In this document: positions 6,323 through 18,869 of the stretch, piece by piece
Layout: each line of letters starts with the position of its first letter
How positions within the stretch are numbered: the stretch's first letter is position 1
From: Octopus vulgaris
Lineage: Eukaryota
NCBI GenBank assembly: GCA_951406725.2
Contig: OX597834.1
Location: 2,976,001-3,040,000 of the forward strand
Direction: 5' to 3'
DNA: 64,000 nt
Program-made: the position numbers and the translations under genes
The notes under the pieces: model-generated
The model's database searches: none
What the model saw: the letters and a program-made list of their open reading frames with translations, nothing else
What the model was told of the DNA's origin: nothing

Positions 6323-6480
6323 TATAATCAAAATGAGCAGCAAGGATATCCAGAGACATCCTTGTTACTCATTTTGATTGTAATAACCCCATTTTGAATT
6401 AAATGGATAATACCATACCACATTCTGGTGCCTTTAACTTAAGTATCATATTCATTTGAATCTAAATTTTACTAAACTTA
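6323..6480 (-). mobile_element. Internally deleted foldback derivative of the 29075/18945 ribozyme-bearing family
   Basis: 28-bp arms at 6323-6350 and 6355-6382 (4 mismatches, 4-nt loop). The rest is the reverse complement of 29075-29175 ('ggtgcctttaacttaagta'). Confidence 0.7.
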
Positions 6481-6682
6481 CACATACATATATATATATG
6501 TGTGTGTAAATGGATGAATGAATTAGCCTTTGTTTACTGTTAACTTGGAAAATTCAATAAACAGTTACCAGGGTAGCAAAATTCACGCAAGTAACACGGA
6601 TGAAGCGACCTATTCAAGGGTAGAAACTCCGGGTTAATGTGCAGTAATTTGTGTAGTATAAGATGTTATTAAAATTCTTTTA

Positions 6683-6765
6683 CTTTCGACATATGTTTCG
6701 AAGACAACATTGGTTTTACTCCAAAGGAATAAACGGTGTAAAATGCAATCTTCTCATCAGGAAAG
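6683..6765 (-). ncRNA. Type I hammerhead ribozyme, intact core
   Basis: The minus strand reads CTTTC-CTGATGA-GAAGA...TCTTC-GAAA-C-ATAT-G-TC-GAAAG. Stem I is CTTTC/GAAAG, stem II is long, stem III is minimal with a palindromic AUAU loop, and the triplet is GUC (predicted cut between 6688 and 6687). Confidence 0.8.
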
Positions 6766-6945
6766 AAAGAGAGCCTGTCTCAACAACAAGACATTGCCGA
6801 AAGTAAAAGAATTTCAATAACATCTGCGTTCAACTCCATTTATTTACTTTTGAAACATATGTATTGAATAAGTATCAGTGGAATTTTTGAAACATATGTA
6901 GAAAGTAAAAATACTTGTTTAAACCTGCGTTAACTCCATTTTTTA

Positions 6946-6987
<42 letters not shown>

Positions 6988-6997
6988 CATTCATACA

Positions 6998-7029
<32 letters not shown>

Positions 7030-7776
7030 CATACACATATATATATATATACATATAAACACACATACTTACATAAATACATACATGTACTTATGTATAC
7101 ATATATAATCTATGGGTTTTCTCCATCACTCTAGCTATAAACAAATGCAAATCTCTGGCCTGTATTAACAATATTTCGTAAACAGAAAAGAAATGAACCG
7201 AACTAGTTACAAACACGAAACAGAACACCATCGCCAACTGAAAACTCTCTTTGATTCTGCGCACAGTCGGCAACTGGGTCCCCTCTTTAACTGTCCGCGC
7301 ATACATTACTTACAAATCCAAAATCACAGAGGATTTCAACAGTCGCGTTGCTTCATTTGTTTATACAAAGCCTGGCTCATTAACATAGGATTTTTTGGTT
7401 CTTGTTAAAATTTTAAATCCTGTACCGTGCCACAGATTTCAATGAACCCTCTACGTCATAGATATTTGTCAACACTTTACTTTTGGCATACAATATCTTT
7501 GTGAGCATCAAAAGCATTTTCTGCTGGCCGTGTTTCAGTTTTAAGAAATGCCAAATGTGACTCGAAAACGTTGTTGCACTCCACTGAAAGACGGAGAATG
7601 CTGTGGCATTCTCGACTCACATCAAGTATTTAAAAGCACCATTCAATGGTTTGACCGTGATTAGACATTAAATATCATTTTCTCAACATTTTTTTTAGGT
7701 TTAACTGTAAATGTATTTTAATTTGCCCTCAAGATTTTGCGCATTGTCATGAGATTAATATAAATTAACATCAAGC

Positions 7777-11553: not shown

Positions 11554-11619
<66 letters not shown>

Positions 11620-11634
11620 TAAAAAGTATTTTTA

Positions 11635-11718
11635 CTTTCTACACATGTTTCGAAAATTCCACTGATACTATTCAAAAGAATAAATGGTATAAACAATGCA
11701 ATCTTCTCTTCGGGAAAG
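11635..11718 (-). ncRNA. Type I hammerhead ribozyme motif, U4C variant, in a (TA)n-flanked element (11615-11905)
   Basis: The minus strand reads CTTTC-CCGAAGA-GAAGATT...AATTTTC-GAAA-C-ATGT-G-TA-GAAAG. It is homologous to the 6500-6950 element. Confidence 0.65.
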
Positions 11719-11897
11719 TGAAAAAAACGAAACTCGTCAATACGACATTTTAGCAAAAAATGATGGATTTGTATAGCGATAGACAGAACGCTATTAATAC
11801 AAGGAGTTACAACATCTTTACTTGTGAGATTTTTGCTGCCCTGGTAACTATTTATTTATTTTTCCGTGTTAATTGTTAACAAGGTAAAAATACACTC

Positions 11898-11978
<81 letters not shown>

Positions 11979-13929: not shown

Positions 13930-14762
13930 AATGAGGGCAGTTTCTACACTAAAAACAAAACTATTAAAAGTAACAAACGGAATAAAGATAACATTTGGCT
14001 AATAATCCCCTTCGCGATACAACTAAAAACCAATGTAGTTAAATCCAAAATGAGACTTATAGATAAGCACTTCAATATGAATACCAAATACTCAGAAATC
14101 TTTAGCAATAAAATTAGAGTAGGCCATAGCCGAACTAGCAACATAGTTACTATTATAGCCTCTGTTAACAATAAAAAGCTAGACGCCTTCTCTCAAACTA
14201 GGAAGAATAACAATAAAAAGCACAACAACCAATCGATTGGTATAATAAGTGATCCCCCAAATAACTCACCCTCTAAAAATTCGGACAACCACCTTATAAA
14301 TAATAATTCACCCACCCCAGCCCCAACATATCATAGGCACAGATAATCTTACTAATCTATGTGACTGCAGAGATAAAAATACTTGTGAATTCTTGAATAA
14401 ATGTAAAACTAAAAACGTAATCTACTAATGTGATGTACTCTCTAATAATTACAAGAAAACTTATATTAGAGCAACTAAAAATGAAATGAAACTTAGATAT
14501 AATTCTCATCGTTCAAGTTTCAGAAAAAGAAGTAAAGCGAACTCTACCGGACTAAGTAGTTACATCTGGTAAACTGAAGGACAATAACATTAACTACAGA
14601 TTAGCATGGCGTATCCTAGCCAAAACATATTCATATAACCTTCATAATAATCGCTGTAATTTATGCATAAATGAGAAATTCTTCATTTTAATGGCCAAAT
14701 CAGAATTACTTAATAAACGAGACGAGAAAAAATTAACATGTTTGCATAAAGATAAACTCTAA
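13930..14762 (+). mobile_element. Penelope-like retroelement, C-terminal linker and GIY-YIG endonuclease (decayed)
   Basis: 'NKRNKDNIWLIIPFAIQLKTNV...RLIDKHF', then 'CDCRDKNTCEFLNKCKTKNVIY*CDV...TYIRATKNEMKLRYNSHRSSF...STGLSSYIW-LKDNNINYRLAWRIL...RCNLCINEKFFIL...LLNKRDE...CLHKDKL*'. Confidence 0.85.
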
Positions 14763-18740: not shown

Positions 18741-18819
18741 TTCCTGAGAGAAAGACACAATATGGTCTCCTTATTCAATCGGAATTTGGTAAATTGTGCC
18801 TTTCGAAACACGTGTAGAA
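18741..18819 (+). ncRNA. Type I hammerhead motif with a 1-nt core deletion
   Basis: TTC-CTGAGA-GAAAGACACAAT...ATTGTGCCTTTC-GAAA-C-ACGT-G-TA-GAA. The downstream 'CGTTCAACTCCATT' also occurs at about 6827. Confidence 0.6.
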
Positions 18820-18869
18820 TGCAATAAAACGATTTCTGTTCAATCTTCGTTCAACTCCATTTCTTCAAT

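Follow-up and report, generated by a model that had tools for sequence, protein, structure and literature searches.

A hammerhead ribozyme between inverted repeats in Octopus vulgaris lies in a back-to-back pair of Penelope-like element ends

The Hydra clade of Penelope-like elements with a C-terminal endonuclease, Hydra-1_Obim included, was described by Craig et al. (2021, PMC8557442), who name the integration of these telomerase relatives as unresolved. According to that account, clade members encode a single ORF in which a reverse transcriptase (RT) is followed by a GIY-YIG endonuclease, with DKT, RW(K), CxxC and CxH motifs and a CxCX5C linker. They are reported to carry a canonical hammerhead in their end repeats, to insert at (TA)n, and to show an inverted 5'-truncated copy with a one-sided tail of 30-40 nt. 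Such inverted copies and tails have also been published for Penelope of Adineta vaga (PMC3846280), where the inversions were read as self-priming on an antisense template, and for Penelope of Drosophila virilis (PMC2377424), where the inverted repeats are of variable size. For the end-repeat hammerheads of Penelope-like elements, Cervera and de la Pena (2014, PMC4209133) reported motif pairs 100-700 bp apart on opposite strands, and low in vitro cleavage, with none as a monomer for the one tested. For Poseidon PAc from the green anole, Frangieh et al. (2024, PMC11167929) described an AT-rich target and two internal RT start sites that delimit the tail; in vitro, both target strands were cleaved and extended, and insertion did not need the hammerhead.

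The locus examined here lies in a 64-kb stretch of Octopus vulgaris DNA (the window) and is a back-to-back pair of short 5'-truncated Penelope-like end copies between TA-type microsatellites. In the following, positions are those of the window, and signed numbers count from the hammerhead cut site.

6480..6506, no strand: left flank, TA/TG microsatellite sequence.
6507..6795, minus strand: direct 5'-truncated Penelope-like end copy, from -107 to about +206, its terminus being the long 3' end of the family.
6507..6660, minus strand: one-sided "tail" of about 155 nt, which in the two-ended family copy L077 separates the upstream hammerhead repeat from the start of the ORF.
6660..6663, minus strand: private loss of 23 nt in the direct copy, between two CTT words.
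6661..6691, minus strand: pairing partner of the arm within the direct copy, comprising the cut site, the 3' strand of stem I and the bases after it.
6683..6765, minus strand: type I hammerhead motif with a 5-bp stem I, CUGAUGA, a long stem II, GAAA, a palindromic stem III and GUC.
6795..6849, plus strand: inverted arm, another end copy from this family, running from about +1 to the short 3' terminus (+52 to +54).
6850..6943, plus strand: 3' end fragments of a sister family adjoining the arm (93% over 56 nt; this family is also present at 11616-11906).
6944..7107, no strand: right flank, TA/TACA microsatellite sequence.

An earlier note on this DNA had placed a minus-strand hammerhead within inverted repeats at 6661-6691 and 6795-6825, and the alignment and motif coordinates bear this out. 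The two arms are identical at 29 of 31 positions, the match breaks off sharply on both sides (self-BLAST E 6e-10), and the helix predicted between them in minus-strand RNA has 31 uninterrupted pairs. The length of 31 bp stands for this match but not for the arm itself, which reaches 6849 and measures about 55 bp (6795/6798-6849, with the inner junction uncertain by 3 nt). The direct copy also extends beyond the 6661 arm, as far as 6507, and the inverted repeat appears to be 31 bp long because this copy lacks 23 nt beside 6661. Compared with the natural copy L031, the direct copy shows 10 mismatches and one 23-nt gap. The gap was considered as a recurrent priming footprint and rejected, as a search of the whole genome returned a single match, the window locus itself. 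Among 99 long arms (the first 30 arm-ranked loci included), none of the 12 internal deletions ended near +52. The sister-family fragment at 6850-6943 shows that the history of the locus took more than one step.

The hammerhead has a complete type I core (CUGANGA, GAAA and NUH with three stems). On the minus strand, stem I is formed by 6765-6761 paired with 6687-6683, the core comprises CUGAUGA (6760-6754), a long stem II, GAAA (6699-6696) and GUC (6690-6688), and stem III consists of two pairs with the palindromic loop ACAUAUGU. The predicted cut at 6688/6687, as given in the earlier note, agrees with the mapped GUC. The pairing is kept in relatives, with 97.4% of 155 cells paired in 10 hand-picked sequences from three families, and three pairs have changed on both sides within these 10. 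Of 88 sampled copies, 80 have a palindromic stem III and 61 an intact catalytic core; the core is intact at the window locus too. No Rfam hammerhead model matched the locus at either threshold, probably because the long stem II lies outside the range of the models, and the best Rfam match, a microRNA model with 33.6 bits against a cut-off of 140, was dismissed as it only reflects the hairpin. The type I fold, short stem I, long stem II and palindromic stem III resemble the Penelope-like hammerheads of PMC4209133, whereas the stem II of 7-8 bp given there is far longer here. Its position shows the hammerhead to be the ordinary end-repeat ribozyme of the element, and it is predicted to perform best as a dimer through the palindromic stem III. 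A non-LTR retrozyme, defined in 10.64898/2026.07.22.740005 by head-to-tail hammerhead units without a coding body, was also considered and rejected, as the locus has one hammerhead and its unit is part of a coding element. A subfamily with a stem III loop two bases shorter, still palindromic, accounts for 23 of 38 junction-pattern matches (L224, L227, L229-L235 and others). Unrelated hammerhead-like motifs, several with a long stem II and a palindromic stem III, were seen in the flanks of L022, L253, L142, L172, L240 and L217.

The unit is abundant in the genome, where two of its words (27 and 23 nt) gave 311 and 473 exact matches and controls gave 0; a first-look genome search yielded 1763 candidates, 40 of which were scored. 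In several copies, the unit runs on upstream into a same-strand ORF with LYRDD, DKT, RW, CxxC and CxH motifs, and with a GIY-YIG-like block at its C-terminus. Present in L031 are the end of the RT, an endonuclease block, a hammerhead and the long terminus, with an inverted end copy 2.2 kb upstream, and L077 has a hammerhead repeat on both sides of the ORF with an arm beside neither. By motifs and alignment, L077 and L031 display the single RT and C-terminal GIY-YIG ORF and the direct hammerhead end repeats of a Penelope-like element, and the 5' truncation, inverted 5' copy and one-sided tail of Penelope-like insertions are all present. Pfam and PDB searches with the ORFs gave no significant match. 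Motifs and an alignment compared by eye point to the Hydra clade: SDKT is found in L075-L077, RW(L) in L077 and RWK in several homologues, the CxxC and CxH motifs occur as CNIC/CGVC and CKH/CMH, and the target is (TA)n. The element thus resembles the clade described in PMC8557442 in ORF layout, motifs, canonical end-repeat hammerhead, target, inverted 5'-truncated copy and one-sided tail. It differs from that description in its tail of about 155 nt and in the CxCX5C linker, which is kept in homologues and replaced by Asn-rich sequence in L075 and L076. An AAT-repeat, Asn-rich stretch was observed in the ORF of L031 (5745-5859), L075, L076 and L077 where the homologues carry the cysteine linker. 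Asn-rich ORF inserts, a variable-size inverted end repeat and a tail on one side are likewise described for the Adineta vaga (PMC3846280) and Drosophila virilis (PMC2377424) elements. The named homologues of the ORF proteins are from octopods, which would fit a cephalopod host. The protein start and the hammerhead, judged by eye, differ from those of Hydra-1_Obim and point to a separate family; on sequence grounds, the element is a new family of a known clade.

Inverted pairs were surveyed in 157 distinct insertions, taken from the first listed matches of two arm-independent words (L045-L074, L078-L213, L028, L031 and the window locus), with flanks of 1.5-3 kb in which distant arms can be missed. 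The first 30 loci, ranked by arm likeness, were kept out of the insertion counts except for L028 and were included in the subfamily-site and deletion counts. Tail-out pairs were present in 86 of the 157 sampled insertions, and the other 71 showed a single orientation. The 86 pairs have 85 different junction pairs; in 20 of them, the window locus among these, one arm holds a full hammerhead and the other extends to the cut site, and the inner ends are spread between +2 and positions beyond -100. Such a geometry is thus widespread and has no fixed form. The outer ends, on the other hand, fall at fixed sites, +54 or +209, which are 155 nt apart, with one outer end at neither site in 26 of the 86 pairs. 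When both ends were defined and the window locus was left out, 57 of 59 pairs combined a short with a long end, 2 were short-short and 0 long-long (p 6e-15). At each of two linked subfamily sites, +17 and +28, the two arms carry the same variant in 45 of 50 pairs, where chance would give about half, and disagree in 5 of 50; the shared variants indicate that both arms came from one source in one event. Among the 57 short/long pairs, 39 have sequence in each arm that is absent from the other (count by inspection), 16 are nested and 2 start together. Seven of 91 long arms stop between about +36 and +61, five of these exactly at +52, the short site (L051, L128, L147, L164 and L175), and short shared bases could contribute to these stops. 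A TA run follows the short end in 76 of 86 motif matches that do not continue into the tail (not de-duplicated).

The earlier note had inferred two competing folds, with the arm as a possible built-in off-switch, and had expected it to mask the cut site in the minus-strand transcript. The masking is supported by folding predictions: the two copies span the same bases, which places the arm over the cut site, and the structure predicted with the arm is a hairpin of -61.4 kcal/mol in which the pairing probability of stem I falls to 0.0. The catalytic core is also intact here, as a selected switch gating ribozyme cleavage would have it. However, the ribozyme fold is 17.4 kcal/mol less favourable than the ensemble when the arm is present, versus 3.8 without it, 3.0 for the core alone and 4.6 in the native L007 context, a gap too wide for competing folds and beyond what a toggle allows. 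A transcript spanning the arm is predicted to form a stable hairpin with a dead ribozyme and no toggling. Neither a conserved anti-ribozyme arm nor two folds of similar energy was found: the arm is not part of the element, nearly all its junctions being different, and it is missing beside both hammerheads of the two-ended copy L077 and, within the flanks sampled, from the 71 insertions with a single orientation, and in L031 it lies at a distance of 2.2 kb. The off-switch reading is extremely unlikely for this locus and is already largely refuted at the family level. No apt precedent for antisense masking was found in the literature covered, which included few subscription papers. Four sequencing runs, three of them assumed to be RNA, have contigs that match the family; these are uninformative on the window locus or the strand, and no contig among the matches listed crosses the arm junction. 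Another account, in which the arm is a run-off copy of an RNA that had cleaved itself and so began at the cut site, would suit the window arm, which begins within 3 nt of that site, and the 5 of 113 arms that start at -3 to +1, all of them short-end arms. Genome-wide junction patterns, however, gave 5 matches at -3..+1 (3 real junctions, the window locus included), 5 at +2..+6 (3 independent) and up to 12 at -8..-4, so that in these small counts 5' ends are in no excess at the cut site relative to neighbouring windows. Most near-site starts carry sequence from 5' of the cut. For 3' ends, the cut site and a control site yielded 3 matches each, so that such ends are equally rare at both (again small counts). 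There may be a modest excess of ends at the cut site, but we consider run-off copying very unlikely.

The earlier note further suggested a snap-back primer for reverse transcription. If the first DNA strand had folded back and been copied, or an antisense template had served in this way, as suggested for the elements of rotifers, the arms would share subfamily variants, as they do. Self-priming has a published proposal in PMC3846280, the window locus is nested like 16 of the 57 pairs, a further 2 start at the same place, and the up to 12 junction-like matches at -8 to -4 lie at the palindromic stem III. For 39 of the 57 pairs, fold-back copying is excluded because each arm holds bases that the other lacks, and several of these pairs have no overlap at all; why the second arm ends at +54, a fixed site, next to a TA run is also left unexplained. 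Fold-back is a possible origin for the window locus, whose arm is nested in the direct copy, and is very unlikely as the account of the arm. Two primers at fixed sites are favoured because of the paired fixed ends, the shared variants, the non-nested pairs, the stops at +52, and the nicking and start sites described in PMC11167929. PAc is alike in its two tail-bounding RT starts, both-strand cleavage and AT-rich target, and differs in belonging to another clade and in having start sites only a few tens of bases apart. The self-priming read for Adineta vaga (PMC3846280) likewise differs from the pairs here, which fit two primers better.

We therefore consider it highly probable that two short copies of a Hydra-clade Penelope-like element were inserted here back to back, likely through nicking of both strands of a TA repeat and priming at two fixed sites on the element RNA, with the arm as a by-product. 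In this scheme, the element enzyme would nick both strands of the TA repeat, and each nicked strand would prime reverse transcription at one of the two sites. The first copy would initiate 209 nt past the cut site and run back across the whole ribozyme, the second would initiate 54 nt past it and halt near the cut site, and the two copies would then, we infer, be joined at their inner ends. As an argument against the scheme, many pairs overlap, the window locus included: a single RNA molecule with one end repeat would not yield such pairs unless a strand were displaced, the template were tandem or circular, or two RNAs from one source took part. The 26 pairs with an outer end at neither fixed site, the pairs that disagree at the subfamily sites, the nested arm of the window locus and the adjoining sister-family fragment also count against it. 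In LINE-1, twin priming denotes priming by the second target strand on the RNA, which leaves an inverted 5' piece. The pairs described here are alike in that origin of the inverted piece, and differ in their fixed second site and in the frequent overlap of their arms. More generally, we lean slightly towards reading two features of Penelope-like elements, the inverted ends and the tail on one side, as products of programmed twin priming, with one fixed site (+54, +209) per strand, often on the same RNA, as the long arms stopping exactly at the short site suggest, and with about one pair in four silencing its own ribozyme as a side effect. The template would be uncut or re-ligated, because copies traverse the cut site without a pile-up of ends.

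The inverted pair is what Penelope-like insertion ordinarily produces, and it reveals no new switch. Its remaining interest is mechanistic and lies in the fixed ends, one per arm, the shared variants and the stops at the short site. The family offers a dense record of integration by a telomerase relative, in which paired start sites and second-site stops give sharp predictions.

Several minor observations were made in the window and the survey. No host genes were recognised by eye among the longer ORFs of the 64-kb window. The 14-nt piece at 6850-6863 in the sister-family fragment repeats 6886-6899, with its end exactly at the GUA cut site of the sister family. A copy of that family lies between TA runs at 11616-11906 on the minus strand, with a CCGAAGA hammerhead core, a GUA site and a far end that is seemingly inverted. 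A third related hammerhead end, of which the 3' half is present with a TA run after it, was found at 18801-18865 (plus strand), and a decayed fragment of a related Penelope-like frame with 35-38% identity at 13960-14747 (plus strand). Finally, L161 (G000:C2:60024753-60027775), one of the two exceptions to the short/long rule, is a short-short pair that forms a perfect palindrome, with its turning point at the palindrome of stem III.
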